NCBI GenBank assembly: GCA_049801375.1
Contig: JBARKJ010000046.1
Location: 3,204 to 67,203, forward strand
From: Nitrospirota bacterium
GTDB taxonomy: Bacteria > Nitrospirota > JACRHJ01
Direction: 5' to 3'
Length of the DNA stretch: 64,000 nt
The first letter of the stretch is position 1. Each line of letters opens with the position of its first letter. This document shows positions 27,486 through 48,056 of this stretch, piece after piece. The position numbers and the translations under genes were made by a program. The notes under the pieces are model-generated. The model made no database searches. It was not told the DNA's origin and saw nothing but the letters and a program-made list of their open reading frames with translations.

Positions 27486-27914
27486 CTATTCTTTCGTGGT
27501 CATGGCCATGAACTCGGCCTCGCAGACTACCTTGCCGTCGACCTTAGCCTCGCCTTTGAACTTATAGACCTTGCCCCTGACCTGGAGCGGCTCCACTTCG
27601 AGCACGAGCTGGTCGCCGGGGACAACCGGCTTTCTGAACTTCACCTTGTCTATGCTCATGAAGTAGACCATATTGTCATCGGACTCCACGGTCTTGTGGA
27701 CCAGTATACCCGACGCCTGCGCCAACGCCTCGACAATCAGTACGCCCGGCATTATCGGCTTTCCGGGGAAATGCCCCTGGAAGAAATGCTCGTCGAAGGA
27801 GACGTTTTTTATGGCGACCAGCCTCTTGCCCGGCTCGATCTCAAGCACCCTGTCCACGAATAGGAAGGGGTAGCGATGAGGCAGTATTTTCTGAATCTCG
27901 ATGATGTCCAGCAT
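27486..27914 (-). CDS. fabZ: 3-hydroxyacyl-ACP dehydratase
   Basis: The track ORF extends to 28016. The start was set at Met35 ([23 protein letters not shown]..., the canonical FabZ N-terminus). [19 protein letters not shown] hot-dog active site. Confidence 0.9.
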
Positions 27915-27928
27915 TAGCCCTCCGTCCG

Positions 27929-28942
27929 CTAATTTTTTTCCAGCTTCTTCTCCAGGTCCAATATCCGCTTCCGATACTCCGGCAGCTTCCTGAGCGCGGC
28001 CTGCATCTTGAGCCATTCGGCGTGCGGAGCCGCCGGCGAGCCGCTATAGACCTGCCCCGCCTCCACGTCGTTCATCACGCCCGACTTCGCGCCGATCTGC
28101 GCGCCGTCCCCAATCTTTATATGGCCCACCAAGCCAGTCTGTCCCCCGATCACCACCCGGCGCCCCACTTCCGTGCTGCCGGATACGCCGACCTGGGCGA
28201 CTAATATCGAGTCCTCGCCGATTAAGACATTGTGTCCGACCTGGACGAGGTTGTCTATCTTGGTCCCACGCCCGATGATGGTATCCCCCAGCGCGCCCCG
28301 GTCGATTGTAGAGTTCGCGCCGACCTCCACGTCGTCCTCGATGACCACGCCGCCGATCTGTGGGATTTTGAAGCGCTTTCCTGCGTCCGTCGCGTAGCCG
28401 AAGCCGTCAGCGCCAATGACCACCCCGCCGTGTATTATCACGCGGTCGCCTATCCTCACTTTTTCGCGGATGACCACGTTGGGATAGATTATGCAGTCCG
28501 CGCCTACCGACGAGCCTTTTCCGACATAGACCCCCGGATAAAGGACGGTCCGGTCGCCGATTTTCGCGCCCGCCTCTACGAACACATTGGAATAAATTGC
28601 CGCGTCCAGTCCAATCGATGCTTCCGAGTTGACTTTTGCGCCGTCCATGATGCCCTTTGGAACTTCAGTCTTCGGGGTGAACAGCGTCAGCAGTTTGGCG
28701 AAGGCAAGATAAGGGTTTTTCGTGCGGAGGCAGGGCCTGCCTCCGACGTCCACTCCCGGCGCGGCTATGACGGCCGAGGCGCGGGTGTCGGATAATTCCT
28801 TCGCATGCTTCATGCTGGTAATAAAGGTAATCTCGCCAGGGCCTGCCGCTTTTAAGCTGGCTAAGCCCTTTATCCGGACCTGGGAATCACCTTCCGCCTG
28901 CGCCCCGACGGCGTCGGCTAATTCTTGAAGTGTCCTGTCCAT
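27929..28942 (-). CDS. lpxD: UDP-3-O-acylglucosamine N-acyltransferase
   Basis: 337 aa. N-terminal uridine-binding domain followed by hexapeptide repeats; lpxD-fabZ-lpxA order. Confidence 0.9.
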
Positions 28943-33031: not shown

Positions 33032-33486
33032 TCGAGCTTCAGGGTCATCGCTGTCTCGTTGCACTCGTCGGGATACTTGACGCACTTGTTCCGGCACTCG
33101 GTCCATACCTTCTGCGGGAGGTCGTTTTTGCTGGCCTTACGGAAACCGATTTTATCGAAGAATTCCTGGACGTACGTCAGGACGAAGACTTCCTTAACCC
33201 CCATCTCGGCGGCCTCTTCCATGCAGGCCCGGACCAGTTTTTTTCCTATGCCCTTCCCGATATGCTCCGGCGCGACCGCAACCGACCTCAGCTCGCCAAG
33301 GCCTTCCCAGCCGACATGGAGCGCGGCCACGCCTATGACTTTTCCGTTTTTTTCATAGACGCTGAAATCGCGGATGGAGTCGTACAGCTCGCCAAGCGCC
33401 CTGGGGAGCATCTCTCCCTTTTCGGCGTAGCGGTTGACCAAGTCCTTTATGACTTTTACGTCCTGGATTCGCGCTTTTCGTATCAT
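33028..33486 (-). CDS. GNAT-family N-acetyltransferase (short ArgA-like amino-acid N-acetyltransferase)
   Basis: 152 aa. ...VAVAPEHIGKGIGKKLVRACMEEAAEMGVKEVFVLT (acetyl-CoA binding Q/RxxGxG/A motif). Confidence 0.7.
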   Translation of the reverse strand: MIRKARIQDVKVIKDLVNRYAEKGEMLPRALGELYDSIRDFSVYEKNGKVIGVAALHVGWEGLGELRSVAVAPEHIGKGIGKKLVRACMEEAAEMGVKEVFVLTYVQEFFDKIGFRKASKNDLPQKVWTECRNKCVKYPDECNETAMTLKLD

Positions 33487-34022
33487 CAGCCGACCTGAGA
33501 AAAGCCCTTTTCGAGCGCGGATATGTTCGCGGTAAGGAGATGCCTGTTCCTGGGTGGGAGCGATTCTTCGAGGGCCTTCATTACATGGCCGATGGAGGCC
33601 GCGCCGGAGACCTTCAAGTATGCGCCGAGCAGGACCATGTTGACCACGCGCGGGTTTCCTATTTCCTCCGCTATCTCGTTCGCGGCTACATTAAGTACCT
33701 TTCTGCCCGGCCTCTTGACGACCGTCTTGACGAGAGAGGAATTCAGGATTATGAACCCGCCGCGCCCGACCTTATCGGAGAACTTGACGGCGGAGGCCTC
33801 GTTCATGGCGATGAGCGCGCCGGGGCTGTCCACCACCGGAGAGCCGATCTCTTCATCGGATATTATTACGGTGCAGTTGGCGGTGCCGCCGCGCATCTCC
33901 GCGCCGTATGAAGGGAACCATGTCACATGCTTCCCGCCCAGCATCCCCGCCCACGCCAGGAGCTTGCCTGCCAGCAGGACTCCCTGGCCGCCGAAGCCCG
34001 CAATTAATACGTCGCTTTTCAC
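33486..34022 (-). CDS. 2-oxoacid:ferredoxin oxidoreductase gamma subunit
   Basis: The long track ORF (351 aa) is spurious upstream. A GTG start at 34022 (GTGA overlap with the beta-subunit stop) gives MKSDVLIAGFGGQGVLLAGKLLAWAGMLGGKHVTWFPSYGAEMRGG..., a typical gamma-subunit N-terminus. Confidence 0.75.
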   Translation of the reverse strand: MKSDVLIAGFGGQGVLLAGKLLAWAGMLGGKHVTWFPSYGAEMRGGTANCTVIISDEEIGSPVVDSPGALIAMNEASAVKFSDKVGRGGFIILNSSLVKTVVKRPGRKVLNVAANEIAEEIGNPRVVNMVLLGAYLKVSGAASIGHVMKALEESLPPRNRHLLTANISALEKGFSQVG

Positions 34023-34765
34023 AGACGTTTCCCGCCGTCTTTGAATACCTTCACCGGGAAAACATCCTGCATCGGCCCGGCCACCCATTCCATCGCCTTC
34101 AGGGGGTCCATCCCCCAGTTCGTCGGGCACAGCGAGAGGACCTCGACGAAAGTAAAACCCTTGCCCGCAAGCTGGTACTCGAAGGCCTTCCTTATGGCGT
34201 TCTTCGTCTTGACGACGTTTTTCTTGCTGTCTATCGCGGTGCGCTCCACGTAATACGGCGCCTCCAGCGTCGCTATCATCTCCGCCGCCCGCAGGGGATA
34301 TCCGTCCTCTTCGGGTTTTCTGCCCCTTGGAGTCGTGGTAGTTTTCTGGTTTATCAATGTCGTGGGGGCCATCTGGCCGCCGGTCATCCCGTATGTCGCG
34401 TTGTTCACGAATATGACCGTGAAGTTCTCGCCCCTGTTGGCGGCGTGTATAATCTCCGCGGTCCCGATGGCGGCAAGGTCCCCGTCGCCCTGGTAGCTGA
34501 ATATCAGCCTGTCCGGGAGGACCCGTTTCATCCCGGTGCATGCCGCCGGGGGCCGTCCGTGGGCGACTTCGAGCATATCGAAATTAAAATAGTCGTAAGC
34601 GAACACGGCGCATCCGACGGGCGCGATGCCGATGGTCTTTCCGCGCATCCCCAAATCGTCTATCGCCTGGGCGATCATCCTGTGCAGAGTGCCGTGGCTG
34701 CAACCCGGACAGAATCGAAACGGCGCGGGCTTCAAGGACTTCGGCCTTACGGAAATCTGCTTCAA
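34019..34765 (-). CDS. 2-oxoacid:ferredoxin oxidoreductase beta subunit (TPP-binding)
   Basis: 248 aa. FCPGCSHG (N-terminal Cys motif of the OFOR beta subunit), and the GDGD...NN TPP-binding motif (SYQGDGDLAAIG...IFVNNATYGMTGGQ). Confidence 0.8.
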   Translation of the reverse strand: MKQISVRPKSLKPAPFRFCPGCSHGTLHRMIAQAIDDLGMRGKTIGIAPVGCAVFAYDYFNFDMLEVAHGRPPAACTGMKRVLPDRLIFSYQGDGDLAAIGTAEIIHAANRGENFTVIFVNNATYGMTGGQMAPTTLINQKTTTTPRGRKPEEDGYPLRAAEMIATLEAPYYVERTAIDSKKNVVKTKNAIRKAFEYQLAGKGFTFVEVLSLCPTNWGMDPLKAMEWVAGPMQDVFPVKVFKDGGKRL

Positions 34766-34890: not shown

Positions 34891-34966
34891 GCCGAGGTAG
34901 CTCAGATGGTAGAGCAGAGGCCTGAAAAGCCTCGTGTCCGCAGTTCGATTCTGCGCCTCGGCACCA
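34891..34966 (+). tRNA. tRNA-Phe (anticodon GAA), with encoded 3' CCA
   Basis: GCCGAGGTAGCTCAGATGGTAGAGCAGAGGCCTGAAAAGCCTCGTGTCCGCAGTTCGATTCTGCGCCTCGGCACCA. The 7-bp acceptor stem GCCGAGG/CCTCGGC, D-loop AGCTCAGATGGTAGAGC, anticodon loop CTGAAAA and T-loop GTTCGATTC are all canonical. Confidence 0.9.
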
Positions 34967-34973
34967 TTTTTTC

Positions 34974-36359
34974 CTACCGCTTCACTTCCGTGTACTCCGA
35001 CGCTTCCTTTTCCGCCTTCATTTTCTCCCATGCCTTATCCGCGATCCTGCAGTATTCCTCGGAGTATTTATCCAGATCCGGCGCCAGGTCGGTCAGAATC
35101 TTCTCCGCGCCTTCATGCGTGGGCCGCGCCCCGGAGGCCAGGACCGATTCGCGGACGAACTCCGGCTTGTCTATCATCATGCACGGGGTCAGCATGTTCG
35201 GGTTCGTCTTCTGCCGCGCGCGGATCATCTTGAAGAACGACGACATCAGCGCGTCTTTTATCGTCGTATTCCTGATGTTGTCCACGGCGAAATGGCAGAA
35301 TACGCAGGGTTCGATATCTCCGTGCGCGTTCACGTGCAGGTATTTCCTGCCGCCGGCTAAGCACCCGCCCACGACGTGCCCGTCGTTCCAGAAATCAGCT
35401 AACAGTATCGGCTTTGTCCGCCGGACGCGCCAGACCGTCTCCCGGAGCGTGCTTCTCTGCTGGGGCGTGGGCATAAGGTCGATGTTCGGCTCCCTGCCTA
35501 TGGGTATGTACGAGAAGAACCAGCCCACCGAGCAGCCCTTTTCAATCATAAGGTCATAGTACTCCTCCGAGGTAATGGTCTCGAAGTTCTTGCGGGTCGA
35601 GGTGCAGGAGAAGCCGAACAGTACCCCGGCCTCTTTCAAAAGGTCCATGGCGTGCATGACCTTCTGGAAATGTCCCTTGCCGCGCCGCAGGTCGGTCTCC
35701 TCCTCGAACCCTTCAAGGCTTATGCAGGGCAGGACGTTGCCAAGCTCGGCAACCTTCTTCACAAGCGTCTCGTCTAAAAGTCCGCCGTGGGTGAAAACGA
35801 GGAACGCGACATCGTGGTGCTTTTCGAAAATTTCCAGCAGGTCCTTACGGAAGAACGGCTCTCCGCCGGAGACGACGCAGAAGTAAACGCCCATCTCCTT
35901 CATCTGGTTTATGACGCCGTCGACTTCATCGAACGACAGTTCTTCGGTCTTTTTATAGCTGCCGGCGTAGCAGCCGAAGCAGTTCAAGTTGCAGCGCATC
36001 GAGGGCGATATGACATACAGGCCGGGTGGATAGAAACCGCCCCCTTCGTCCTGAAACGCCTTCCGCTTGTTCGTGCCTACCAGCAACTGGCCGACTATGA
36101 ACGTCTTCACCAGCCTCTTGCGGACGTTCGGGTGGGTCTCCCGGATTATCTTCTTCGCCACCTGCAGACTCGGGTGGCCGTCCATGAACATCTTCCGGAT
36201 CTCCCTTATCGCCTTGACGTACTTCTCTTTTTTGGCGAATTTTTCAGCCAGGTAGGTAAACCGGATTACATTTTCGTCTGAACTGTTGCCCAGAATCCCC
36301 AGCAGGGCGTCCGCCGCCTGCGTTATTGTATAATTTCGAAACTGCTCAAAATAACTCAT
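34974..36359 (-). CDS. Radical SAM protein with a C-terminal SPASM/twitch-like Cys-rich domain (terminal gene of the PKS-lipid cluster)
   Basis: The start was set at Met7 of the track ORF (MSYFEQF...). CNLNCFGCY (CxxxCxxC) preceded by a ~100-aa N-terminal domain; SGGEPF glycine-rich SAM motif; GGCLAGGRKYLHVNAHGDIEPCVFCH auxiliary-cluster motif. Confidence 0.75.
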   Translation of the reverse strand: MSYFEQFRNYTITQAADALLGILGNSSDENVIRFTYLAEKFAKKEKYVKAIREIRKMFMDGHPSLQVAKKIIRETHPNVRKRLVKTFIVGQLLVGTNKRKAFQDEGGGFYPPGLYVISPSMRCNLNCFGCYAGSYKKTEELSFDEVDGVINQMKEMGVYFCVVSGGEPFFRKDLLEIFEKHHDVAFLVFTHGGLLDETLVKKVAELGNVLPCISLEGFEEETDLRRGKGHFQKVMHAMDLLKEAGVLFGFSCTSTRKNFETITSEEYYDLMIEKGCSVGWFFSYIPIGREPNIDLMPTPQQRSTLRETVWRVRRTKPILLADFWNDGHVVGGCLAGGRKYLHVNAHGDIEPCVFCHFAVDNIRNTTIKDALMSSFFKMIRARQKTNPNMLTPCMMIDKPEFVRESVLASGARPTHEGAEKILTDLAPDLDKYSEEYCRIADKAWEKMKAEKEASEYTEVKR

Positions 36360-36429
36360 TACCGCTTCACCTCCCACTACGATTGCAGAGTATGTAATTT
36401 TTACAAAACAGGGGGCACTAAGTCAAGGA

Positions 36430-37329
36430 TTAATCCCAAAAATAATAAAAATTGAACCATTGTTCAGGGTGGCTGCGCACGTATTTTTCAAATACGGCGG
36501 CGATTTTCCTGATGTTTACCCGCAGGTCATGGTCAACGTCCCCGGTAGCCGTCATCTCTATCGGCGGCTCCGCGACAGGATGGTATTTGCCGTCCTCTCC
36601 CATTATTGTAAACGCGGGTATAAGCGGCACACCGGTTTTCATGGCCAAAAGCGCCGGCCCCCTTGGGAACGCCGCCGGCTTCCCGAAGAAATCCACCCTG
36701 ATGCCGGACCTGCTTAAGTCCCGGTCCCCCTGAATCGCCACCAGTTCATTTCTTTTCAGGGCGTTATACGCGCTCAGGGCAAACCCGGCGGGGTTGTCGG
36801 TGGATATTATTTTTATCCCCCTGATATCCTTGTTCCTGTCTAAAAGGCGGTTCTGCTCCTCCGAGTCGTAGAGGTGCTGGACGACGTTTACCTTGAACCC
36901 GAGGTATTTAAGCAGTATCCCGCCCAGTTCCCAATGGCCTATGTGCGCGGTCAAGATTATCGCGCCCTTCCCGCCCTCGACCGCTTTTTTAATATTGTCC
37001 AGGCCTAAAAATTCCGGCACGCGCGAGGCTATCTCGGCGTCGCTCATCCGCTCGAAACGGAAGAGGTCCAGCAGAAATCTCCCGTGGCTGCGCCAGAGCT
37101 TCCGCACCGTCATGAACTTTTCACGCTGCGGGACGTCCGGGCCCAGGACGTGGTCCAGGTTCCTTACCTGCTCGGGGACGATATTTTCGGATTTATAATA
37201 GAATAGCCAGTCGGCGATCCTGTCCCCTATCAAGTTGGCGAGAGGGGTCGGGATATATCTCGCCCCCCAGGAGATCCACCAGTAGATGGAGTGCTTGTCC
37301 AGCCTGTAGGAATGAGTCCCTTTAACCAT
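36430..37329 (-). CDS. Lysophospholipid/lipid A-type acyltransferase (LpxL/HtrB-family paralog inside the PKS cluster)
   Basis: 299 aa. AHIGHWELGG (HX4E acyltransferase motif); C-terminal HPEQWFNFYYFWD resembles the LpxL C-terminus. A second LPLAT copy, distinct from the lpxL at 16490-17443. Confidence 0.7.
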   Translation of the reverse strand: MVKGTHSYRLDKHSIYWWISWGARYIPTPLANLIGDRIADWLFYYKSENIVPEQVRNLDHVLGPDVPQREKFMTVRKLWRSHGRFLLDLFRFERMSDAEIASRVPEFLGLDNIKKAVEGGKGAIILTAHIGHWELGGILLKYLGFKVNVVQHLYDSEEQNRLLDRNKDIRGIKIISTDNPAGFALSAYNALKRNELVAIQGDRDLSRSGIRVDFFGKPAAFPRGPALLAMKTGVPLIPAFTIMGEDGKYHPVAEPPIEMTATGDVDHDLRVNIRKIAAVFEKYVRSHPEQWFNFYYFWD

Positions 37330-38884
37330 CAGCCAGCCCCAGTTTCCTCAAGGCTTCCCTCATCGGCCCCTGAAAAGGCCGGGGCGTCTCGGAGAGAAAC
37401 GCGTCCTTTACGTCGGAAGCTTTCACCGTACCGGATCTTACCGCCCCTTGCACCTTCTTCCGGATAGCCTTGCGCGCAATGGGCCGAAGTAGAGCCGGGA
37501 CTTCCAGCAGGACTTTCTCGAACACCTCCAGGGCGAAATCGTCCCACAGAGCTTCCTTCGGTTGTGAATCGGGACGTCTTCTCGAACTTGAATCCGAATA
37601 CATTCCCTGTAGAATAGCGTTGGCGGGATAGCAGACCCAGTCCGGATGGGTCTTGAAATATTCCCCGGCTATGGAATAAAGGCCGTCTCCCAACCTGTCC
37701 GAGACGTAAAACTTAGGCTCCATAAGCGTATCTTCGGGCGAAATTAATTTCTCATACACGGCGAGGCGGGCAAGGGGCGTGCCCGGATATATCCGCACCC
37801 CGGCGACGGCGAACACTTTATCGGGCTGCAGTTCCTCAAGGGCGTCGAAGGTCTCTTTAAGCGAATCCCCGTCTTCGCCCGGCCCGCCCAGGAGGAGGAA
37901 CACGAGGCTCATCAGCCCTGCCTCCTTCGCGGCCCGGACGGCGTTCACGGCCTCATTCTTTCCGAATTTTTTACCGAGCCTTGGGAGCATCCTGTCGGAC
38001 AGGGAATCCGCGCCCACCTCCACGCTCTCGCATCCCGCCCGCTTCATCTTGTCGAGGAGTCTTGCGTCCAGTCCGACGGGGCTTGCAAGGCATCCCCAGG
38101 AAGCTCTTATCCCGCGCTTAATTATTTCATCGCATACGGCAGCGGCATGGCCGGGCGGATTATTGAATATATTGTCCACGAAATAAAAAGGGGCCGTCAG
38201 TCCGGCGTCTATCGCGCTGCTCATCTCGCGCGCCACTTCCTCGGGGGGCCTCAGGCGCATTTCTCTTCCTTCCAGCCCCGGATAGGTGCAATAGACGCAC
38301 GAGAAGGAACAGCCGCGTTTAGACTGGATACCTACCATGTCGTAATCCTTGGCCGGGAAGAGGTCCCACGCTGGCAGGACGAGCGGAGAAAGGCTTAGCG
38401 GACTTGGCGGGTTCTGGAAATAGGAGCCGCCTTCAAACCGGCAAAGGCCGGGGACCTTGGAAAAAGGCGTCTTGCCGGTAAGCGCGTCCGCGAGCATCGG
38501 CACGGCCATCTCTCCCTCTCCGGCTATCCCGTAATCCGCTCCCAGGTATTCAAGTGCGGCCTCCGGCATGATGGAATATCCCGGCCCCCCCAAAACGACA
38601 GGGGCTTCCGTCTCTCGTTTTATCTGCCCGATGACTTCCCTGTAATCCGGCAGGAGAAAACGGCTGGAAGACTCGATATTCCTTATCGAGACGCCGACGA
38701 AATCCGGAGAGAGAGAACTGATTGCCCGCGTCAGTTCAGTTTCCGGGTCTTCCGCGAAAAGGAGGTCGAGCGCATGCACGTCGTGCCCCGCAAGGCGGAG
38801 CGCTTGAGCGACGAGCGCAAGGCCGAGCGGGGCCGCGGTGAACGGCTCGGTCTCCCTGTTCACGGATACCAACAAAACTTTCAA
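37322..38884 (-). CDS. B12-binding-domain radical SAM enzyme (class B rSAM) with a C-terminal PCP-reductase-like tail
   Basis: 520 aa. N-terminal cobalamin-binding Rossmann fold (MKVLLVSVNRETEPFTAAPLGLALVAQALRLAGHDV...), CSFSCVYC (CxxxCxxC). C-terminal ...PIARKAIRKKVQGAVRSGTVKASDVKDAF resembles the PF08369-type tail. Confidence 0.75.
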   Translation of the reverse strand: MKVLLVSVNRETEPFTAAPLGLALVAQALRLAGHDVHALDLLFAEDPETELTRAISSLSPDFVGVSIRNIESSSRFLLPDYREVIGQIKRETEAPVVLGGPGYSIMPEAALEYLGADYGIAGEGEMAVPMLADALTGKTPFSKVPGLCRFEGGSYFQNPPSPLSLSPLVLPAWDLFPAKDYDMVGIQSKRGCSFSCVYCTYPGLEGREMRLRPPEEVAREMSSAIDAGLTAPFYFVDNIFNNPPGHAAAVCDEIIKRGIRASWGCLASPVGLDARLLDKMKRAGCESVEVGADSLSDRMLPRLGKKFGKNEAVNAVRAAKEAGLMSLVFLLLGGPGEDGDSLKETFDALEELQPDKVFAVAGVRIYPGTPLARLAVYEKLISPEDTLMEPKFYVSDRLGDGLYSIAGEYFKTHPDWVCYPANAILQGMYSDSSSRRRPDSQPKEALWDDFALEVFEKVLLEVPALLRPIARKAIRKKVQGAVRSGTVKASDVKDAFLSETPRPFQGPMREALRKLGLADG

Positions 38885-38907: not shown

Positions 38908-39492
38908 CTATCTGCTCAGTTTCTCTACGAACTCCGATATCTTGTCGCCCGTGGCCTTAACCCTGTTTTCCACAAGCGCCCATTTGTCGCCGCCCTGTAG
39001 TCCGGAGGTGCTTTCGTGCTGGAATGTCGCGAGCTCCTTGCCGGTCTTGGCGTCTATGAGTTTGCCTTTCACTGTGATTCCCGCCTGGCCGGCACCCATT
39101 CCCCAGAACATCCTGCTGAATGTGCTCCCCATGTTAACCTGCGAGAACTCGCCCTCGATTATCATGTCCGCCTTGTCGGCGTTCTTGCCGTCCGGATCAA
39201 TGATAAAGGCGGTGACCCTGTCCCCGTTAAGCTCGTTCTTCATAGTCCGGGCTAGCATCTCCTGCCAGTCCTTCAGGTAGTTTTTGAGCTCTCTCTTCTC
39301 TTCGTCGTCCACGTTGTTGTACTCTACGTTATCAGTGGAGAATAGCTTGATCCCGATGGTCCTGTACTTCGAGAGGCTCTCGTCTGTCATTACGTCCTCT
39401 TTGTCGAGGACTCCCGGAGCCGACATCCTGGCTAAGCCATTAATGGGTATCAAAAGTGCGACAACGGCCATTATTAAAAGCATTTTTTTCAT
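38908..39492 (-). CDS. Secreted/lipoprotein-like protein of unknown function
   Basis: The start was set at Met15 (MKKMLLIMAVVALLIPINGLA signal peptide). No catalytic motifs. Gly-rich MFWGMGAGQAGITVKGK segment. Confidence 0.45.
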   Translation of the reverse strand: MKKMLLIMAVVALLIPINGLARMSAPGVLDKEDVMTDESLSKYRTIGIKLFSTDNVEYNNVDDEEKRELKNYLKDWQEMLARTMKNELNGDRVTAFIIDPDGKNADKADMIIEGEFSQVNMGSTFSRMFWGMGAGQAGITVKGKLIDAKTGKELATFQHESTSGLQGGDKWALVENRVKATGDKISEFVEKLSR

Positions 39493-39564
39493 TGTATTCC
39501 TCCTGTTCACAATCGGGTTAATAAATAAAAACACGGGTAACCCCCCTTGCCTCCTTTCGAGAAT

Positions 39565-40926
39565 TTAACTTCCGAAATTCTTTATTATCAGTCTCGCGGC
39601 GGCCCTGCCGGACAGCACCGACGACGCGGCACAGCCGCCGACCGGAAGCACCGTGGAACCTACGCAGTATAATCCCTTGACAGGCGTATTCGTGCCCATC
39701 TTCTCGTAATGCACGCTCTCGGCGACAGGCGAGACGGAACTGGCAAAACCGAAGTTAACCGCATAGTCCATCGGAGTGTAGAGCCTGCCTTCGACCACGC
39801 TCTCCCGGAAGCCCGGAATCAACGAATCCATTTTAGCCATTACTTTCCCGGCCTCGGCCTCGATTGCCTCTCTTGCGATAGCGCCCTTGGGCACGAGGAA
39901 TTTTATGGTACCGGCAAGATGCTCCCCGCCCGTGTCATGCGCCGCGCCGGGGACGGAGATGACGTACATATTATCTTCCGGAAACGAGCCGTCTTTCAGG
40001 GTCTTGAACATCCCGCCGACACTTTTCGGAAACATCGCGTAGAGGTGCACGCCCGGAGTAATCTTCGCGCTCCTCTTAAATACCGTGAACACGCTCGCCA
40101 TGCAAAAACCCTCTTTGTAGTAGCCCAGCGTGTTCAGGAACCCCTGCGGGAAATTCTCCTTGCCCGCGAGAGAGTGAACCGTCTGCAGAATGCCCGTCCC
40201 GCTTATGACACTCTCCGCCTCTATCTCCCTGCCGTCAAGCAGGACGCCCCTCGCCTTGCCGTCGCTTATCAATATTTTTTTCGGCTGCGCGTTATAGACT
40301 ATGCCGCCGCCGTTCTCGCGGATGACGTCGGCCAGAAGTTCGGGCAGTCTCCCCGAACCGGCTCTGGGTATGAATGGCTTATCGTATCCGTACGTCCTGC
40401 CGAAGACAAGGTTAAACCAATGAGACGGCATATTTTCAGGTTCGTTCCCGGAGAAAAACGCGCCGACATTCAATATCTCCCGTAAATTGTCGTTATCGGT
40501 AATCCGGTTTATCACTTCTTTGTAATTGGAGATTTTCCTGTAGCGGTTAAATAATATCTGACCGCCCATACTGAGGCCGAAGCGGCCGATATCCTTTGCC
40601 CCCATCCCCATGCCGCTAAGGTCCTTAGGCGTATGCAGGCCCGGCGGGATGGTCATGGAGGAATCTGAGCAATTCGCCAGCACCTTGAACCATACCGGCT
40701 CCAGCTCTTTTTTCTTCCCCAGCTCCGAGAATACGCCGAGTAATTTTTTGCCGAAATAGTCCGCGCCGATGTCGAAGCGGTGCCCCATAAGCTCCACCGT
40801 CCGGCATCGCCCGCCCGGCTCGGACATCTTCTCCAGCACCAGCACTTTTTTCCCGGCGCGCGAAAGATACGCTCCGGCGGAAAGCCCGCCAAGACCGGCG
40901 CCGATTATTACCGCGTCATATGACAT
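39565..40926 (-). CDS. FAD-dependent oxidoreductase, phytoene desaturase (CrtI) family
   Basis: The start was set at Met23 (MSYDAVIIGAGLGGLSAGAYLSRAGKKVLVLEKMSEPGGRC, the dinucleotide-binding GxGxxG...E motif followed by GG). ~450 aa CrtI-like length. Confidence 0.7.
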   Translation of the reverse strand: MSYDAVIIGAGLGGLSAGAYLSRAGKKVLVLEKMSEPGGRCRTVELMGHRFDIGADYFGKKLLGVFSELGKKKELEPVWFKVLANCSDSSMTIPPGLHTPKDLSGMGMGAKDIGRFGLSMGGQILFNRYRKISNYKEVINRITDNDNLREILNVGAFFSGNEPENMPSHWFNLVFGRTYGYDKPFIPRAGSGRLPELLADVIRENGGGIVYNAQPKKILISDGKARGVLLDGREIEAESVISGTGILQTVHSLAGKENFPQGFLNTLGYYKEGFCMASVFTVFKRSAKITPGVHLYAMFPKSVGGMFKTLKDGSFPEDNMYVISVPGAAHDTGGEHLAGTIKFLVPKGAIAREAIEAEAGKVMAKMDSLIPGFRESVVEGRLYTPMDYAVNFGFASSVSPVAESVHYEKMGTNTPVKGLYCVGSTVLPVGGCAASSVLSGRAAARLIIKNFGS

Positions 40927-40928
40927 TG

Positions 40929-42131
40929 TCAGGCAAACCCCTTTATCGCCTGCACCGTTTTTTTCGCGGTGTAAACGCATGACTCTATGCACGGGAGCCG
41001 GTAGAAATCTCCGGCCAGATATGCGCCCGGAACCTCGGTCTCGATTCCTCGCGTCCTGCTCCCCGGCGGGATGAGCGTAATCGCCGGAGACCAGCCCACC
41101 TTAGGCAGTTCCTTATATTTCCCGAACACGGCCTCGATGTCCGCGTCCGTCCTGTACATGAACATCCCGGCGATGGTCCTGCCGTCAGGCAGGTGTTTCA
41201 TCTCTCCGCCGTGGATGCCGTGGCGGTTTTTATATTTGGAAAAAAGCAGGACGTCGTATTTGCCGTACCGGGGGGTGCGGGACTCGAATATCACTCCGCG
41301 CGTCTTGGTGGATTTCACGTCCACGGTTATTTCCGGCATCACCTTGCCAAGGCTCTCCTGGCCGGTGGCGAACACCACGCAATCCGCCGTCTCCTTCAAA
41401 GGCTCCCCCTTCGGCCCTTTAAGACTTATATCAAAAGTCCCTGATGCATTTTTCTTTACCCTCTCGACCTTATATCCCGTCTTTACAACGCCCGGCATCC
41501 TCCGCACAAGCTCGGCCGCCACCTCCGCCATCCCCTTGTGCGGTACGCGCACGGGCGAATCGCCGTACGCAAACAGGAACAGCCCATGGTCCGCGGCGAT
41601 GTGAGGCGGGTCTATATACCCGAAGCTGGAGAACGGCTGGACGATGTAGTCCAGCATTTTTTGCGAATAACCCATCTCGCGCACGCAGAACTCTTCGAGT
41701 GAAATCGAATGAAGCTCCCGAAGCTTCGGGTCCCAGTTCTCCATCCGGAAGTCCAGGCCCTTTATAAACTTCTTCAGCCGCCCCCACTGCATGTACTCGG
41801 AAAAAGTAAAAAAGCCGCTTCTGAACATGGACCAGGAATCAAGGCCGGTGATTTTATCGCCTATCTGGAGGGCAAATTTTTTAAGCCTGATCAGCTCGTG
41901 CGACACGCCCAGTTCCGCGATCAGTTCCGTGAAGTGCGGGTTCAGGCGTGGCGCGAACATCATCGCGCCTTTATTTATATATACCCCTTCATATTCCAGC
42001 GTCGCGAACCGTCCGCCCGCATCCGGCCTCTTCTCATAGACGACCGGCTGGCAGCCCTCCTTCCGCAGGTAATAGGCCGTCGAAAGCCCGGCGATACCGG
42101 CACCGAAAATCAAGACCTTTTTATTTAACAT
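40929..42131 (-). CDS. FAD-dependent oxidoreductase (amine-oxidase / protoporphyrinogen-oxidase / HpnE-like)
   Basis: 400 aa. KKVLIFGAGIAGLSTAYYLRKEGCQPVVYEKRPDAGGR N-terminal FAD fold; C-terminal ...GAYLAGDFY typical of the amine-oxidase fold. Confidence 0.65.
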   Translation of the reverse strand: MLNKKVLIFGAGIAGLSTAYYLRKEGCQPVVYEKRPDAGGRFATLEYEGVYINKGAMMFAPRLNPHFTELIAELGVSHELIRLKKFALQIGDKITGLDSWSMFRSGFFTFSEYMQWGRLKKFIKGLDFRMENWDPKLRELHSISLEEFCVREMGYSQKMLDYIVQPFSSFGYIDPPHIAADHGLFLFAYGDSPVRVPHKGMAEVAAELVRRMPGVVKTGYKVERVKKNASGTFDISLKGPKGEPLKETADCVVFATGQESLGKVMPEITVDVKSTKTRGVIFESRTPRYGKYDVLLFSKYKNRHGIHGGEMKHLPDGRTIAGMFMYRTDADIEAVFGKYKELPKVGWSPAITLIPPGSRTRGIETEVPGAYLAGDFYRLPCIESCVYTAKKTVQAIKGFA

Positions 42132-42243: not shown

Positions 42244-43155
42244 TTATAAACCAAGTACAGTTGCCAAATTACCGTACAAAATCTTTTGTTTGGAAGGAAG
42301 CGTTAAGGCTAGTGCGTTAACCGCGTCTATCGACGCCTTTATCTCCCGGTTCGCCGGGAAATCGCTCCCCCACAGCACCCTGTCCTCGCCGAATACATCG
42401 GCCGCAAGTTCCAGCATCTTTACGTCCGCCGTGCCGGAAGTGTCCACGTAAACTTTCTTCAACGTCTCCCCCGGTTCCTCACCCATGTCCTTCACTATCC
42501 CCCGGCCAAGGAGCATCTTGTACGTCCTTCCGTATCTGCCGGCAAGAAACGGCATCACGCCAGCAAAGCTCGCGAACACAAGCTTCAGCCGGGGGAACTT
42601 TTTCAGCAGGCCAGAGTCGATAACCCTGGCGAGGCAGAGCGTGGTATCGAACGCATACTGGAACACCGGAGTTATCAGCGGGTGGCGCAGCTTCTCGAAC
42701 CCGAACGGAGTAAGCGTAGTGGGATGAAAAAAGACCGGCGCTCCCCACCCTTCGGCCTTCTCGAAAAAAGGCAGGAACCTATCATCGTCCGGATAATTAC
42801 CGCCGTTGTTCGTCGGCACTGTAAATCCGGCCGCGCCCTGCGCCAATGCCTCTTCCCCCAGAGTGACCATATCGTCAGCCCCTGCCAATGGCACTGACCC
42901 AAGCCATAAAATACGCCCAGTCGACCTCTTTGCTATGTCCTTCACCGCCCCGTTATATACGCGCGCCGCATCCGTTTCCGCAAGGGCGGCCTTGATGTGA
43001 AAATCGGTAGTCGGGTATGATACCAGCGCGCGAGAAACGCCGGCTTCGTCCATTGCACGAAGATGGTTATCAATTCCGCCCCAGGACTCGTTGTAGAACG
43101 AGGCGTGTTTGATTACCTCGTCCGGCAATAGATGGAAATGCGAATCGAATATCAT
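42244..43155 (-). CDS. Amidohydrolase_2 family (ACMSD / hydroxybenzoate (de)carboxylase / 2-pyrone hydrolase-type TIM-barrel metalloenzyme)
   Basis: The start was set at Met17 (MIFDSHFHLL, the metal-binding HxH of the amidohydrolase fold). ...VLWGSDFP (C-terminal Asp ligand). 1-nt shared ATG/TAA overlap with the flavoprotein gene. Confidence 0.65.
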   Translation of the reverse strand: MIFDSHFHLLPDEVIKHASFYNESWGGIDNHLRAMDEAGVSRALVSYPTTDFHIKAALAETDAARVYNGAVKDIAKRSTGRILWLGSVPLAGADDMVTLGEEALAQGAAGFTVPTNNGGNYPDDDRFLPFFEKAEGWGAPVFFHPTTLTPFGFEKLRHPLITPVFQYAFDTTLCLARVIDSGLLKKFPRLKLVFASFAGVMPFLAGRYGRTYKMLLGRGIVKDMGEEPGETLKKVYVDTSGTADVKMLELAADVFGEDRVLWGSDFPANREIKASIDAVNALALTLPSKQKILYGNLATVLGL

Positions 43156-43880
43156 TAATATCTCAGCACTTCTTTTATCGTTTGAAACAGCTCCGAATTC
43201 CACACGTCGTATACTTGTTCGCCCACCGCGCGCGCCATCATTGTTGCTGGTTTATTCTCCTCATAGGACGGCATCGGCTTATCCAGCAGGGTTTTAAAAC
43301 CGGGATGCTCCATCGCGAAACGCTTTCCAACCATGCAGAGGTTCCTCATCTCCGCATCCATCAGGGCGATTCCAGCGCACGCGACCGACGTCGCCGTCAT
43401 TGCTTTCAGGTAATGGAACAGGTAATAGAGCGCGCCCTCCATGCCGAGCGCCGCGCCAACCGCGAGGTTACCCACCGGGGCGCCCTTGAAAGGGTTTTTC
43501 GGGTATGCGGTGATAGTCGTCCCCCATATCTCCGAACGCTCCTGTTCGTGCAGGGGGCGGGTCCTGTGCAAAAGGTTCATGACTATTGCGGGCTGTTGAT
43601 AGGCATAGACCGGGGACGAAAAAATAAACGCGTCCGATTCGGACATTTTATCAAAAATGAGCTTTCCGTCGTCGCCCTTGTCTTCAAGTAGAGGGCAGGT
43701 AAGGCCGCAGAGGCAGCGGTTGCATGCGAGGCATGGCTTCACGTTGTAATTTATCAGGCGGATAACTTCAGACTCGGCGCCTTTTTCCTCGGCGGCCTCA
43801 AGCGCCTTGCGCAGAAAATAATCGCTGGCGGATTTCTGCTTCCCCCTCTTGTGCGTCCCACAGATACCAAGTATCTTCAT
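43155..43880 (-). CDS. Iron-sulfur flavoprotein (Isf) / NADPH-dependent FMN reductase family
   Basis: The start was set at Met72 of the track ORF (MKILGICGTHKRG, the flavodoxin-like FMN phosphate loop). Compact Cys cluster CLACNRCLCGLTC, typical of Isf [4Fe-4S] binding. Confidence 0.7.
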   Translation of the reverse strand: MKILGICGTHKRGKQKSASDYFLRKALEAAEEKGAESEVIRLINYNVKPCLACNRCLCGLTCPLLEDKGDDGKLIFDKMSESDAFIFSSPVYAYQQPAIVMNLLHRTRPLHEQERSEIWGTTITAYPKNPFKGAPVGNLAVGAALGMEGALYYLFHYLKAMTATSVACAGIALMDAEMRNLCMVGKRFAMEHPGFKTLLDKPMPSYEENKPATMMARAVGEQVYDVWNSELFQTIKEVLRY

Positions 43881-44305
43881 ATTCCCTCGATTATTTCTTT
43901 TATCCTCTGCATGTTCTTCTTCGAGTGCTCGTTTATACGGGCTTCCGCCGTTTTGTCGTCCACCGGCGCTTTTTCGTCCATAGAGAAGTCCTGCTCCCAG
44001 GTCATCTCCACCCCGCCGTCTTTCTCTACGTATGTCCAGAGGAGGTCCATGTATTTGAACGGGAACATCGGCTCCTCGCGTTTCGCGGAGCATTTATGCC
44101 CGGGCTTGTCCAGGATGCGACTGGAGCGCCAGGACTTCCCATCTTTGTTGGTCAACTGGAAGGTTATTTTGTTTCCTTCGCGCGAAAGGATCTTCGCGTC
44201 CGAATACTCGTCAAAAAGCTCGGGCCAGCGCTCGATGTCGTTCGTAATGTCGAACACGCTCCCATAAGGCGCGTTTATGAAGATTGAATTCTTGGTGTGT
44301 GCCAT
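43877..44305 (-). CDS. Type II polyketide aromatase/cyclase (SRPBCC, TcmN / WhiE-ORFVI ARO/CYC N-terminal-domain type), stand-alone
   Basis: 142 aa. NSIFINAPYGSVFDITNDIERWPELFDEYSDAKIL...PMFPFKYMDLLWTYVEKDGGVEMTWEQDFSMDEKAPVDD...NMQRIKEIIE follows the TcmN pattern [29 protein letters not shown]...FAYMNLHWTY...[21 protein letters not shown]...NMERIKKIIE (recalled from memory). Confidence 0.7.
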   Translation of the reverse strand: MAHTKNSIFINAPYGSVFDITNDIERWPELFDEYSDAKILSREGNKITFQLTNKDGKSWRSSRILDKPGHKCSAKREEPMFPFKYMDLLWTYVEKDGGVEMTWEQDFSMDEKAPVDDKTAEARINEHSKKNMQRIKEIIEGI

Positions 44306-44314
44306 TATTTTCCT

Positions 44315-45085
44315 TTAGTCCTCGAGTATAGCCACGGCGCGTGCCCATGCCGCGCCCGCGTTTTTTATCTTTACAGGGAAACAGGCGAACTTAAATCCGT
44401 GCGCCCTCGGGAGCGCGCCGAGGTTTGCGAGCCGCTCTATATGACAGTATTCTTTTTTTCTTCCCAGCATGTGTACCGGCCAGAGTTTTGAGCTGTCCGC
44501 GGTCGTTTGATAATCTGCTACCATATTCATAAAAGGCCTGTCCAGGCCCGGCGCGTCGGTCCCGATAGTCCTGATTCCAAGACCGAATAAATATTCCGCC
44601 GCACGGGCATCCAAACCCGCGAATTTAAGAAAATATTCCTTGGTGCCAAAGTACCTGTCCGCCCCGGTCCTGATGAGCGCGATATCGCCCGGTTTCGGCT
44701 TGTAATTTATTTCTTCTAAGCCCCGCCGCACATCATCCGGTTTTATTTCTCCGCCGGGCGGCAGACTTCTCATGTCAATTACAAAACCGTCCCCATAGCA
44801 CCATTCAAGGGGGACCTCGTCTATCTTCTTCGCCGGCCGTCCTTCCGATTCCGGCCCGAAATGCCACGGCGCGTCCACGTGCGTCCCGCAGTGAACCGAC
44901 GCCTGGACGGTCTCATGTGACAGGAACATCCCGCCGGGAAAAGTATCGCCGCCAATTTTCTTCTCTCCCGGAAATTTTTCCCCTACCCTCTCCGCGCCCT
45001 CCTCATGGCCAATCCGGGTCACCTGTACCGGAAAAGGTTCAGGCGCCAAGTCGTCTATAGGGGTGCTTAGGTCGATTATTTTCAA
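44315..45085 (-). CDS. Cyclase-family protein (PF04199; kynurenine-formamidase-like metal-dependent hydrolase / putative polyketide cyclase)
   Basis: 256 aa. ...SVHCGTHVDAPWHF (His-rich metal site, HxGTHxDxPxH) is diagnostic of the cyclase family. Confidence 0.75.
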   Translation of the reverse strand: MKIIDLSTPIDDLAPEPFPVQVTRIGHEEGAERVGEKFPGEKKIGGDTFPGGMFLSHETVQASVHCGTHVDAPWHFGPESEGRPAKKIDEVPLEWCYGDGFVIDMRSLPPGGEIKPDDVRRGLEEINYKPKPGDIALIRTGADRYFGTKEYFLKFAGLDARAAEYLFGLGIRTIGTDAPGLDRPFMNMVADYQTTADSSKLWPVHMLGRKKEYCHIERLANLGALPRAHGFKFACFPVKIKNAGAAWARAVAILED

Positions 45086-45318
45086 GACCTGGCCGCCACG
45101 GTTAGAAAATAGTCGATTATCTCGCGGACCGTAATCACGCCGTTTATCACGCCGTCGGGGATTTTGGCCGAGAATTCTTTTTCCAGCGCAACCATCAGTT
45201 CCACCATCTCAGTCGAGTCAATCCCGAGACCGCTTTTCAAAGTCGCGTCAGGGCGAAGTTCATTTTTGCCTATGCCTATTTCCGCGAAAACTTTTTCTAC
45301 CCTCTCTTCTACCGGCAT
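45082..45318 (-). CDS. Acyl carrier protein (PKS ACP)
   Basis: 78 aa. GIDSTEMVEL (phosphopantetheine attachment Ser in the DSxE/xxE motif). ATGA overlap with the cyclase gene. Confidence 0.8.
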   Translation of the reverse strand: MPVEERVEKVFAEIGIGKNELRPDATLKSGLGIDSTEMVELMVALEKEFSAKIPDGVINGVITVREIIDYFLTVAARS

Positions 45319-45328
45319 CCTTTACCTC

Positions 45329-47790: not shown

Positions 47791-48056
47791 CCCTCCACCC
47801 TCCTGACCTTGAACCGCACATACCCGCCGTCCGGGCAGGTTACGGTGTTGATGGAATTCGGGTCTTCCATGAAGGGGTACTTCGCACCGAAGTTCAGGGC
47901 GAAGAGCACCGGGAACAGCGTATGGTATGCCGCGCCGCAGAAACCTTCCGGCGTCCGAAGTCCCAGGACCTCCACCTCCTGGCCCCGCTCGTATTTATAA
48001 AAACACGGCCCGGAAACTTCCTCGACCGATATAACCATTTTTTTGGGATTTGCCAT
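47787..48056 (-). CDS. Small Cys-containing protein, paralog B (~89 aa; resembles TIGR04076-type proteins)
   Basis: The start was set at Met21 (MANPKKMVISVEEVSGPCFYKYERGQEVEV...PEGFCGAAYHTLFP...FGAKYPF...VTCPDGGYVRFKVRR). ATGA overlap with the KS-alpha gene. Confidence 0.5.
   Translation of the reverse strand: MANPKKMVISVEEVSGPCFYKYERGQEVEVLGLRTPEGFCGAAYHTLFPVLFALNFGAKYPFMEDPNSINTVTCPDGGYVRFKVRRVEG

Follow-up and report, generated by a model that had tools for sequence, protein, structure and literature searches.

Fatty-acid synthase type II (FASII) gene clusters that also carry radical S-adenosylmethionine (SAM) and phytoene-dehydrogenase-like genes are found in Kuenenia, Desulfotalea, Geobacter and Pelobacter (Rattray et al. 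2009, PMC2649909). Since 2009, clusters with FabF-like, phytoene-desaturase-like and B12 radical SAM genes have been regarded as the leading candidates for making ladderanes, and genome-mining tools report them from numerous anaerobic phyla. For these ladderane-like clusters, neither an enzyme nor a product has been established (PMC10139942; PMC13459092), and “ladderane” calls of biosynthetic gene clusters (BGCs) in other phyla remain unexplained (PMC9902471). Here we describe a cluster of this kind in a 64,000-nt stretch of DNA from a Nitrospirota bacterium (JACRHJ01; GCA_049801375.1, contig JBARKJ010000046.1). This whole stretch is referred to as the window, and all coordinates are window positions. 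A 19-kb fatty-acid/polyketide-like cluster in the window ends with three genes, referred to as the trio, which encode a B12-binding radical SAM enzyme, a PatA-like acyltransferase and a 460-residue SPASM/twitch radical SAM enzyme of a family that is called SPASM450 here. The trio may be the tailoring-and-anchoring end of a “ladderane-like” fatty-acid/polyketide synthase lipid pathway that depends on an acyl carrier protein (ACP), with the chain being radically modified and then moved to an envelope lipid. We regard the chances for and against this reading as about balanced. It is built on gene identities, motifs, domain content, operon-like co-linearity and co-occurrence across phyla.

Both the window cluster and the ladderane-like clusters have divergent FabF-type ketosynthases (KS), an ACP, phytoene-dehydrogenase-like flavoenzymes and a TIGR04072-like B12 radical SAM enzyme. 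The window type differs in adding PadR, U32-like, aldehyde:ferredoxin oxidoreductase (AFOR), cyclase, FMN_red, amidohydrolase and two TIGR04076 genes, and in being without FabG, FabZ, malonyl-CoA:ACP transacylase (MAT), thioesterase (TE), family 2 glycosyltransferase (GT2), deacetylase, LolA and MMPL genes. The cluster is genuine and well delimited, and it belongs to a class that is known but unsolved. Specific to its lineage are a TIGR04072 enzyme with a swapped tail, a rare adaptor module that three of its proteins carry, the PadR, U32-like, AFOR and TIGR04076 genes as additions, and a position next to lipopolysaccharide (LPS) genes.

Two better described systems resemble the acyl-transfer part of the cluster. 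In the rhizobial AcpXL/FabF1XL/FabF2XL/LpxXL cluster, a PF03279-type enzyme places a special acyl chain on lipid A (PMC5613085). The acpXL-fabZXL-fabF1XL-fabF2XL-lpxXL genes, like those of the window, combine a dedicated ACP, two FabF-type enzymes and a PF03279 acyltransferase that brings a special chain to an envelope glycolipid, whereas radical SAM genes occur only in the window; LpxXL is likened to the cluster acyltransferase by Pfam family and description. Aryl-polyene clusters use acyltransferases, a glycosyltransferase, a TE, a LolA-like protein and an MMPL protein to build and export an outer-membrane lipid (PMC8253772; bioRxiv 10.1101/2020.12.19.423268). Their type II KS/chain-length factor (CLF) set (ApeC/O/R), own ACPs (ApeE/F) and lipid-anchoring acyltransferases (ApeD/ApeJ) have counterparts in the window, and Geobacter-type relatives of the window cluster also share TE (ApeK), GT2, LolA (ApeL) and MMPL (ApeM) genes with them. 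Aryl-polyene clusters differ in having a PlsC-type ApeD (PF01553) and no radical SAM gene, and the window is without LolA, MMPL and GT2 genes. The rhizobial and aryl-polyene precedents support the acyl-transfer step. The features of the window cluster are summarized in Table 1.

Table 1. Genes and features of the ladderane-like cluster in the window, in order of position.
Feature	Position	Strand	Evidence and remarks
tRNA-Phe(GAA)	34891..34966	+	ARAGORN; Rfam tRNA 68.8 bits; 7 nt past the SPASM450 stop codon
SPASM/twitch radical SAM enzyme (SPASM450), 467-aa ORF	34974-36377	-	Radical_SAM 72 bits (cut-off 29.5); SPASM PF13186 30.1 bits (cut-off 21.5)
PF03279-family acyltransferase, 299 aa	36430-37329	-	Lip_A_acyltrans 142 bits (cut-off 22.3)
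Class B (B12-binding) radical SAM enzyme, 520 aa	37322-38884	-	B12-binding PF02310 67.6 bits (cut-off 32.1); Radical_SAM PF04055 70 bits (cut-off 29.5)
PCP_red/DUF2621-like four-helix module, C-terminus of the B12 radical SAM enzyme (aa ~445-520)	37325..37552	-	
DUF4410 protein	38908-39534	-	PF14366 75.9 bits; N-terminal signal-like segment
Amine-oxidase/phytoene-desaturase-like flavoenzymes	39565-40992, 40929-42131	-	Amino_oxidase 70 and 83 bits
Amidohydrolase_2	42244-43203	-	Pfam; synteny
FMN_red	43155-44093	-	Pfam; synteny
PF04199 “cyclase”	44315-45085	-	Pfam; synteny
Cluster ACP	45085-45321	-	Motif GIDSTEMVEL; tblastn with cluster ACPs; NCBIfam ACP models 51-55 bits, below cut-off
KSb	45329-46648	-	Without active-site Cys and catalytic His; Pfam ketoacyl-synt, pairwise alignment
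KSa	46534-47790	-	Active-site Cys present; Pfam ketoacyl-synt, pairwise alignment
TIGR04076 paralogues	47787-48116, 48056-48319	-	50.6 and 44.3 bits (cut-off 33); adjacent, directly upstream of the KS genes; syntenic in L093-L095
Ketopantoate-reductase-like reductase	48316-49314	-	Syntenic in L093-L095
AFOR	49388-51253	-	Syntenic in L093-L095
Stand-alone PCP_red-like module protein, 81 aa	51366-51611	-	PF08369 26.3 bits (cut-off 32.5); kept in L092-L095 and L099
173-aa protein	51608-52129	-	Between the U32-like and 81-aa genes; synteny
U32-like protein	52123-53529	-	Peptidase_U32 45 bits; C-terminal PCP_red-like module at 52126-52341
PadR regulator	53526-54086	-	PadR 63 bits; synteny

Approximately 21 co-directional genes run from 54086 to 34974, all on the minus strand and with intergenic gaps of at most 221 nt. 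In the order of transcription, the first half of the cluster comprises PadR, the U32-like protein, the 173-aa and 81-aa proteins, AFOR, the ketopantoate-reductase-like protein and the two TIGR04076 proteins. The second half comprises a KS, a KS without the active-site Cys, ACP, the PF04199 “cyclase”, FMN_red, Amidohydrolase_2, the two flavoenzymes, the DUF4410 protein and the trio. The stop of the B12 radical SAM gene and the start of the acyltransferase gene overlap by 8 nt, and 52 nt separate the acyltransferase and SPASM450 genes. The tRNA-Phe gene on the opposite strand marks the downstream end of the cluster. An earlier note on this DNA had called the trio a cluster tail; the trio does close the KS/CLF-ACP cluster, with tRNA-Phe beyond it, and its three open reading frames (ORFs) were confirmed on the minus strand with the domains that had been assigned to them (Pfam). 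Close homologues of all three proteins are present in metagenome-assembled genomes (MAGs) of Nitrospirota at 86-96% identity, and the trio thus consists of real genes and not of chance ORFs. A Rfam search of the window found no RNA gene or riboswitch besides tRNA-Phe, control by a cobalamin or SAM riboswitch included, and repeats around the trio were limited to short matches at chance level.

The whole gene order is kept in relatives at approximately 50-90% identity. The loci of the relatives that were compared are labelled L001, L090 and so on, and P0427 and P0359-P0506 are protein labels. The downstream half of the cluster is syntenic in L001, L007, L008 and L010, and the upstream half in L092-L095; L095 is the same 66-kb contig that bears a SPASM450 orthologue and an acyltransferase orthologue.

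Recurrence of the trio was surveyed in the 80 best loci of the SPASM450 family in GTDB, with neighbouring ORFs labelled by BLAST; 53 of these loci have at least 4 kb on both sides. Among the well-flanked loci, the acyltransferase clade is present in 45/53, a B12 radical SAM enzyme in 50/53 and a small GT2 in 42/53. The order of the genes varies between lineages. Window-type loci have B12 radical SAM, acyltransferase, SPASM450, and other Nitrospirota have acyltransferase, B12 radical SAM, SPASM450 with an opposite-strand flank of B12 radical SAM, DUF4410, GT2, MMPL, TE, FabZ, ACP and FabG. The order in Geobacterales is deacetylase, GT2, SPASM450, acyltransferase, ACP, B12 radical SAM, MAT, TE, B12 radical SAM (TIGR04072), FabG, KS, CLF, FabA-like, LolA and MMPL, with the ACP gene directly after the acyltransferase gene. 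In L090, which holds the closest outgroup acyltransferase, the acyltransferase gene overlaps a B12 radical SAM gene and is followed by LolA, MAT and FabZ-like genes. That the set is kept despite the shuffling of gene order gives good evidence for a functional link between the three genes, and thus for the trio as a conserved module. The trio recurs across at least four cluster architectures. Geobacterales in cultivation carry it too, among them Geotalea sp. SG265, Geobacter sp. AOG1, Trichlorobacter thiogenes, Pelotalea chapellei and Oryzomonas japonica (loci L025, L038, L078, L069 and L043), and these are easier to work with than anammox bacteria or Nitrospirota that have not been cultured.

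In Geobacter-type clusters (L005/L027, L025, L038 and other Geobacterales loci), the number of B12 radical SAM enzymes ranges from two to four, and there are two ACPs as well as LolA plus MMPL export genes. The GT2 and polysaccharide-deacetylase pair of the Geobacter type is reminiscent of ArnC/ArnD or HpnI/HpnK, and by this analogy suggests an amino-sugar head group.

A pathway can be proposed for the window cluster. The KS/CLF pair would build an acyl or polyketide chain on the cluster ACP, and the phytoene-desaturase-like flavoenzymes (by desaturation) together with other upstream enzymes would modify it. The TIGR04072-type enzyme, judging from its fold and family, would then carry out a cobalamin-dependent radical change of the chain, which is likeliest to be a C-methylation. 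SPASM450 is predicted to perform a second radical step on the chain. Finally, the family mechanism and synteny of the PatA-like acyltransferase suggest that it would transfer the finished chain from ACP (or coenzyme A, CoA) to a hydroxyl of an envelope lipid or glycolipid. New chemistry is not established by the present analysis. If a radically modified envelope lipid is made, it would stand for a novel class of anaerobic lipid tailoring and might also be a new source of sedimentary biomarkers. Literature searches found no publication on the SPASM450 family, the acyltransferase clade or the module, and nothing on TIGR04072 or on the combination of LolA, MMPL, deacetylase, glycosyltransferase and radical SAM genes.

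Several points weigh against this pathway. Methylation is not the only reaction of class B radical SAM enzymes, as BchE, HpnJ and OxsB show. Co-transcription is deduced from gene spacing alone, with consensus promoter and terminator scans at background level. The window is without the GT2, deacetylase, LolA, MMPL, TE and MAT genes of the Geobacter type. SPASM450, TIGR04072 and the acyltransferase clade have no characterised member, and are still uncharacterised according to a 2026 review (PMC13459092). Lastly, Zymogenia-type loci hold SPASM450 without KS, ACP, B12 radical SAM enzyme or acyltransferase, in the order SecDF, GT2, SPASM450, LolA-like, deacetylase, LolA. This exception means that SPASM450 may act on something other than the cluster acyl chain.

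The Zymogenia-type loci also favour a different reading, in which the trio, or at least SPASM450, performs a general modification of membrane lipids or head groups (bulk lipids or a lipid-linked sugar) independently of KS/ACP products. SPASM450 is unusually conserved (55-60% identity between phyla), and in the Zymogenia type it stands beside SecDF, GT2, LolA-like and polysaccharide-deacetylase genes. GT2 genes lie within 10 kb of SPASM450 in 42/53 well-flanked loci (58/80 overall) and directly upstream of it in the Geobacterales and Zymogenia-type loci, and the sugar-acting twitch enzyme BlsE is among the weak matches of SPASM450 in the Protein Data Bank (PDB). This reading is rather unlikely, as 45-50/53 of the well-flanked SPASM450 loci have the acyltransferase and the B12 radical SAM enzyme, inside ACP/KS clusters, and no GT2 or deacetylase gene is found near the window-type trio. 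The loci L004, L006, L012 and L013 (Zymogenia and some Thermodesulfobacteriota) have secDF, GT2, SPASM450, LolA-like, deacetylase, LolA and weakly phospholipase-C-like genes, with no KS, ACP or acyltransferase gene close by.

The tailoring-and-anchoring pathway begins, within the trio, with the B12 radical SAM enzyme. Domain order and predicted fold place this enzyme in class B. Its cluster motif CX3CX2C (C192/C196/C199) is invariant in the alignment. Among NCBIfam models, TIGR04072 (“lipid biosynthesis B12-binding/radical SAM protein”, rSAM_ladder_B12) fits best, with a score of 339.6 bits, below the cut-off of 360, for aa 2-417 and model positions 1-415 of 443. In the alignment, the shortfall matches the replaced C-terminal tail. 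Shorter relatives with approximately 40% identity are true TIGR04072 members, e.g. those of the anammox-like locus L003 (438 bits) and of the Desulfuromonadaceae locus L005 (375 bits). The short tail of the family has been exchanged for a module of approximately 75 residues behind a linker in about 40 protein clusters, those that are named being Nitrospirota. The window enzyme is essentially a near-member or sister clade of TIGR04072 with a swapped C-terminal tail, as judged from these alignments.

The AlphaFold2 (AF2) model of the enzyme has a body with a predicted local distance difference test score (pLDDT) of 90, a disordered linker at aa 428-441 and a four-helix module. The nearest solved folds are TsrM (TM-score 0.72, cobalamin-bound), followed by MgmA, OxsB, AprD4, CysS and TokK. 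The class B methylases TsrM, MgmA, CysS and TokK, as well as OxsB (and, by NCBIfam, BchE and HpnJ), have the same N-terminal Rossmann B12 domain followed by a radical SAM barrel, and CysS and TokK carry out iterative methylation of carrier-bound substrates. The window enzyme differs from the solved class B structures in its low identity (at most 24%) and its extra C-terminal module. C-methylation is the most likely reaction, as the default expectation for this predicted fold, and the methylase role proposed in the earlier note fits the modelled nearest folds TsrM, MgmA, CysS and TokK. The identification as BchE, HpnJ or HpnR was rejected (72-80 bits against cut-offs of 481-650).

The match to TIGR04072 could also mean that the cluster makes ladderanes or other cyclobutane lipids, with the B12 radical SAM enzyme forming rings as has been proposed for anammox bacteria. 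The two KS, ACP, phytoene-dehydrogenase-like and B12 radical SAM genes do parallel the anammox candidate cluster (PMC10139942, PMC2649909). This explanation is very improbable. Ladderanes are known from anammox Planctomycetota only, and Desulfotalea does not have them despite its syntenic cluster (PMC2649909); likewise, no lipids match the BGCs called “ladderane” in other phyla (PMC9902471). The cluster has no dedicated FabZ gene, the nearest being the lipid A FabZ at 27489-28043, and its SPASM partner is unlike that of the anammox-like L003, a different, 366-aa SPASM enzyme of anammox-like clusters that is 25% identical.

SPASM450, to which the pathway assigns the second radical step, is an uncharacterised and strikingly conserved family. 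Orthologues across Nitrospirota, Geobacterales, Zymogenia and others share 55-60% identity over their full length, and the GTDB species genomes hold at least 502 loci, some of them in cultivated strains of Geotalea, Geobacter, Oryzomonas, Pelotalea and Trichlorobacter. The true start of the window protein is probably the ATG at 36359, because this codon is preceded by a GGGAGGTGA Shine-Dalgarno sequence and homologues begin at residue 7. The CX3CX2C motif (C129/C133/C136) is invariant. Beyond it, only four Cys residues (C339, C358, C361 and C399) are invariant in 26 homologues, whereas the canonical SPASM motif has seven. From these four residues, SPASM450 is probably twitch-like with one auxiliary [4Fe-4S] cluster. 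Its N-terminus is an all-helical, five-helix domain of approximately 115 aa in the AF2 model and has no Pfam match. The model has a pLDDT of 86, and its best PDB folds are SuiB, SkfB and anSME (TM-score ~0.5). In these enzymes, and in the lipid-acting GDGT-MAS/Tes, a radical SAM core is followed by a Cys-rich auxiliary-cluster region as in SPASM450, which differs from them in the TM-score of only ~0.5, in four instead of seven auxiliary Cys residues and in its own five-helix domain. A bacterial Tes/GDGT-MAS or Mss-type tetraether synthase was considered and rejected (28.6 bits to 7TOL, core only; Foldseek rank 30). The crosslinking role that had been suggested for the SPASM enzyme is unsupported, the family having no characterised member.

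Neither radical SAM enzyme of the trio is a housekeeping enzyme: the BchE model scores 72 bits against a cut-off of 481 and HemN/MiaB-type models score 23-29 bits. Scores and cut-offs for the individual models are 23/205 for HemW, 23/355 for MiaB, 94/500 for NirJ2, 90/500 for AhbD, 53/325 for MoaA and 53/381 for PqqE. SPASM450 reaches no NCBIfam family cut-off, its best models being NirJ2 and AhbD at 90-94 bits. Since SPASM enzymes are mostly maturases of peptides or cofactors, the two radical SAM enzymes might instead mature a ribosomally synthesised and post-translationally modified peptide (RiPP), a cofactor or a tetrapyrrole. PCP_red, which the module of the B12 radical SAM enzyme resembles, originates in protochlorophyllide reductase, proto_IX_ox is the best NCBIfam model of one flavoenzyme (55 bits), and a HemW gene lies nearby. 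Such a role is scarcely credible, given that these scores are far under the cut-offs (94 against 500, BchE 72 against 481, proto_IX_ox 55 against 98), that HemW is outside the gene string and past the tRNA gene, and that the invariant genomic partners are ACP, KS, acyltransferase, LolA and MMPL genes. The cluster also holds no precursor-peptide candidate; its small ORFs were considered as RiPP precursors and rejected, being TIGR04076-family proteins and the module protein.

The acyltransferase is the enzyme that would anchor the chain in the proposed lipid pathway. It has the HX4E motif at H129-E134 (H129-IGHW-E134), aligned with HSGNWD of PatA, and an acidic GDRDL at 201. PatA is the mycobacterial phosphatidylinositol-mannoside (PIM) acyltransferase (PDB 5F2T, 5OCE), and the HX4(D/E) motif and the acidic (E/D)RDL residue of the two enzymes align. 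The PatA model (NF005919) gives the cluster acyltransferase 141.6 bits, below the cut-off of 209, and the LpxL of the window 78 bits. By contrast, the LpxL/LpxP model (TIGR02207, cut-off 297.8) gives 36 bits for the cluster acyltransferase and 159 bits for the window LpxL, and the LpxM model (TIGR02208, cut-off 336) gives 19 and 100 bits, respectively. A PDB search with the cluster acyltransferase returned the PatA structure at 84 bits and the LpxM structure at 31 bits. In a neighbour-joining tree it is placed among the acyltransferases of other radical-SAM lipid clusters, outside the LpxL/LpxM clade and with PatA between; tight orthologues (59-91% identity) are confined to the window-type clade. 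By sequence, the enzyme belongs to a PatA-like clade that is specific to radical-SAM lipid clusters, with PatA as the nearest characterised relative and not an orthologue. Identity to PatA is approximately 27%, and the host is a Gram-negative Nitrospirota bacterium without sign of PIM synthesis, in contrast to the mycobacterial source of PatA. The acyl donor would probably be the ACP of the cluster and not palmitoyl-CoA.

The earlier note had taken this acyltransferase for a late LpxL/HtrB-type enzyme. The scores of 36 and 19 bits on the LpxL and LpxM models, the 141.6 bits for PatA and the tree position show that it is neither LpxL nor LpxM. It had also described the enzyme as a paralogue of a genuine lpxL 20 kb upstream. 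A real lpxL is present at 16490-17443; it lies 19 kb away and downstream in the direction of transcription, and is 25% identical. The enzyme is not PlsC-type, as no PF01553 match was found at E <= 0.01. Neither of the results that the earlier note would have taken as a refutation, housekeeping families for the radical SAM enzymes or a grouping of the acyltransferase with PlsC, was therefore obtained. Homology to ApeD was considered and rejected (E. coli ApeD is PF01553; no BLAST similarity). Transfer of the chain onto a lipid A-like or other glycolipid acceptor had been suggested as well, and here lipid A is one possibility only, drawn from the genomic neighbourhood and the AcpXL/LpxXL precedent. 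The general idea of the earlier note is plausible and partly supported, while the detail of an LpxL paralogue acting on lipid A is not.

A more specific form of this idea is that the acyltransferase is a second late lipid A enzyme of the LpxL/LpxXL kind that places the radical-SAM-modified cluster chain on lipid A, in the way that AcpXL/LpxXL attach very-long-chain fatty acids in rhizobia. The enzyme shares the Pfam family of LpxL, LpxM and LpxXL; its cluster includes a dedicated ACP and two KS genes, comparable to acpXL-fabF1XL-fabF2XL-lpxXL (PMC5613085), and adjoins BamA, Skp and the whole Raetz pathway, in the window as well as in relatives (50-90% identity). We consider it unlikely, though worth weighing, since every “lipid A lauroyl acyltransferase” model favours the window LpxL over the cluster acyltransferase (36/19 against 159/100 bits for LpxL/LpxM) and the tree places the latter outside the LpxL/LpxM clade with PatA between. 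In addition, the orthologous clusters of Geobacterales are not beside lipid A genes, and in the window tRNA, 2-oxoacid:ferredoxin oxidoreductase, GNAT and HemW genes separate the cluster from BamA.

The C-terminal module of the B12 radical SAM enzyme connects the trio to the upstream end of the cluster. Its resemblance to the protein at 51366-51611, pointed out in the earlier note, holds (BLASTP E = 8e-11, 30% identity over 74 aa), and a third copy, which had been missed, forms the C-terminus of the U32-like protein (52126-52341, minus strand). A hidden Markov model (HMM) of the module, built from 21 sequences, matches exactly three sites in the window and the matching three genes in relatives, and has no match in Geobacter-type or other loci. 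The description of the module as PCP_red-like stands in part. The PF08369 scores of 12.9-26.3 bits (12.9-13.5 bits for the B12 radical SAM C-terminus and 26.3 bits for the 81-aa ORF) are below the cut-off of 32.5, whereas both this family and PF11084 are matched by 20/21 modules at E <= 0.1. All scores for the two families stay under the gathering thresholds. In the PDB, the second-ranked match is the BchB domain 2KRU (E = 0.32). PCP_red (PF08369; C-terminus of BchB/ChlB) and DUF2621 (PF11084) have a helix-hairpin signature W...A...VP.(F/L)(F/L)R...(K/R)K in common with the module. The second half of the module (DAFLSETPxPF) is outside the coverage of PF08369, and its context in the window is not tetrapyrrole metabolism, unlike that of PCP_red. 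Together these matches point to a distant relationship only.

The module is rare, with 236 occurrences at E <= 0.001 among 1.84 billion representative proteins, and its carriers are mostly free proteins of 80-100 aa. Fusion partners among those sampled include U32-like enzymes, SCP2 lipid-transfer domains, SPASM radical SAM enzymes, a LuxC acyl-CoA reductase-radical SAM protein and an ABBA aromatic prenyltransferase. Such partners deal with hydrophobic substrates or have to be supplied with electrons, which fits a role as substrate lid or hand-off device or as docking device. The module is predicted to be a cluster-specific adaptor of one kind or the other. A module-bearing SPASM protein, P0427, was considered as a SPASM450 orthologue and rejected, the similarity being that of the generic core only. 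In its broadest form, the proposed pathway would make the trio a widespread anaerobic machine that introduces radical carbon-skeleton changes (methyl branches, rings, C-C links) into ACP-bound chains, which it would then attach to an outer-membrane glycolipid. The acceptor in Nitrospirota could be of the lipid A type, and the module would be a new adaptor of the B12 radical SAM enzyme, the U32-type anaerobic oxygenase-like enzyme and the 81-aa protein. This extension is speculative, and we think it improbable as a whole. If it held, SPASM450 would form a lipid-modifying family new among radical SAM enzymes, and the genetically tractable Geobacter relatives would provide an entry to the chemistry of “ladderane-type” clusters.

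Beyond the tRNA gene lie genes for 2-oxoacid:ferredoxin oxidoreductase subunits, GNAT and HemW, followed by BamA, Skp, LpxD and FabZ. Next come LpxA, LpxI, a GnnA/GnnB-like pair, LpxB, MsbA, KdtA, LpxK, LpxL and heptosyltransferases, and then approximately 14 kb of LPS glycosyltransferases. The region at 14-32 kb of the window (minus strand) is a nearly complete lipid A/outer-membrane locus from LpxL to BamA, with two heptosyltransferases and a GmhB-like protein; neither LpxC nor LpxH was seen within the 64-kb window. The DegT aminotransferase and GFO/IDH/MocA oxidoreductase (GnnB/GnnA-like) suggest a GlcN3N-type lipid A. Adjacency to LPS/BamA genes is also seen in relatives at 50-90% identity. 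Both this position and the DUF4410 protein indicate a link to the envelope. The DUF4410 protein is probably periplasmic or envelope-located, given its signal-like segment; its gene is kept immediately upstream of the B12 radical SAM gene in relatives and recurs in other cluster types. The ORF called mechanically at 33486-34541 (minus strand) has 351 aa with a long Arg/Asp-rich N-terminus, and the actual gene probably has about half that length, because the pyruvate:ferredoxin oxidoreductase (POR) gamma-type gene of relatives has only 180 aa.

Among the remaining cluster genes, KSa and KSb look like a type II KS/CLF heterodimer on the basis of their active-site residues. The ORF called for KSb overlaps KSa by 115 nt, and its start is probably annotated too far upstream. 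For the flavoenzymes, the NCBIfam models crtI_fam and proto_IX_ox score 96 and 55 bits, each short of its cut-off, and the pair is syntenic in L001, L007, L008 and L010. The TIGR04076 pair is retained in relatives at 76-87% identity, the family having no assigned function. The 173-aa protein has no Pfam or NCBIfam match, yet it is 49-93% identical in relatives. For the U32-like protein the sole NCBIfam match is a weak one to the prephenate-dependent hydroxylase TrhP (23 bits), and the protein could be an O2-independent hydroxylase that acts on the cluster product. Just upstream of PadR, L094 has a GT2 gene (7955-8650) that is 42% identical to the cluster GT2 of other lineages, whereas the same position in the window is occupied by an M50 peptidase gene.

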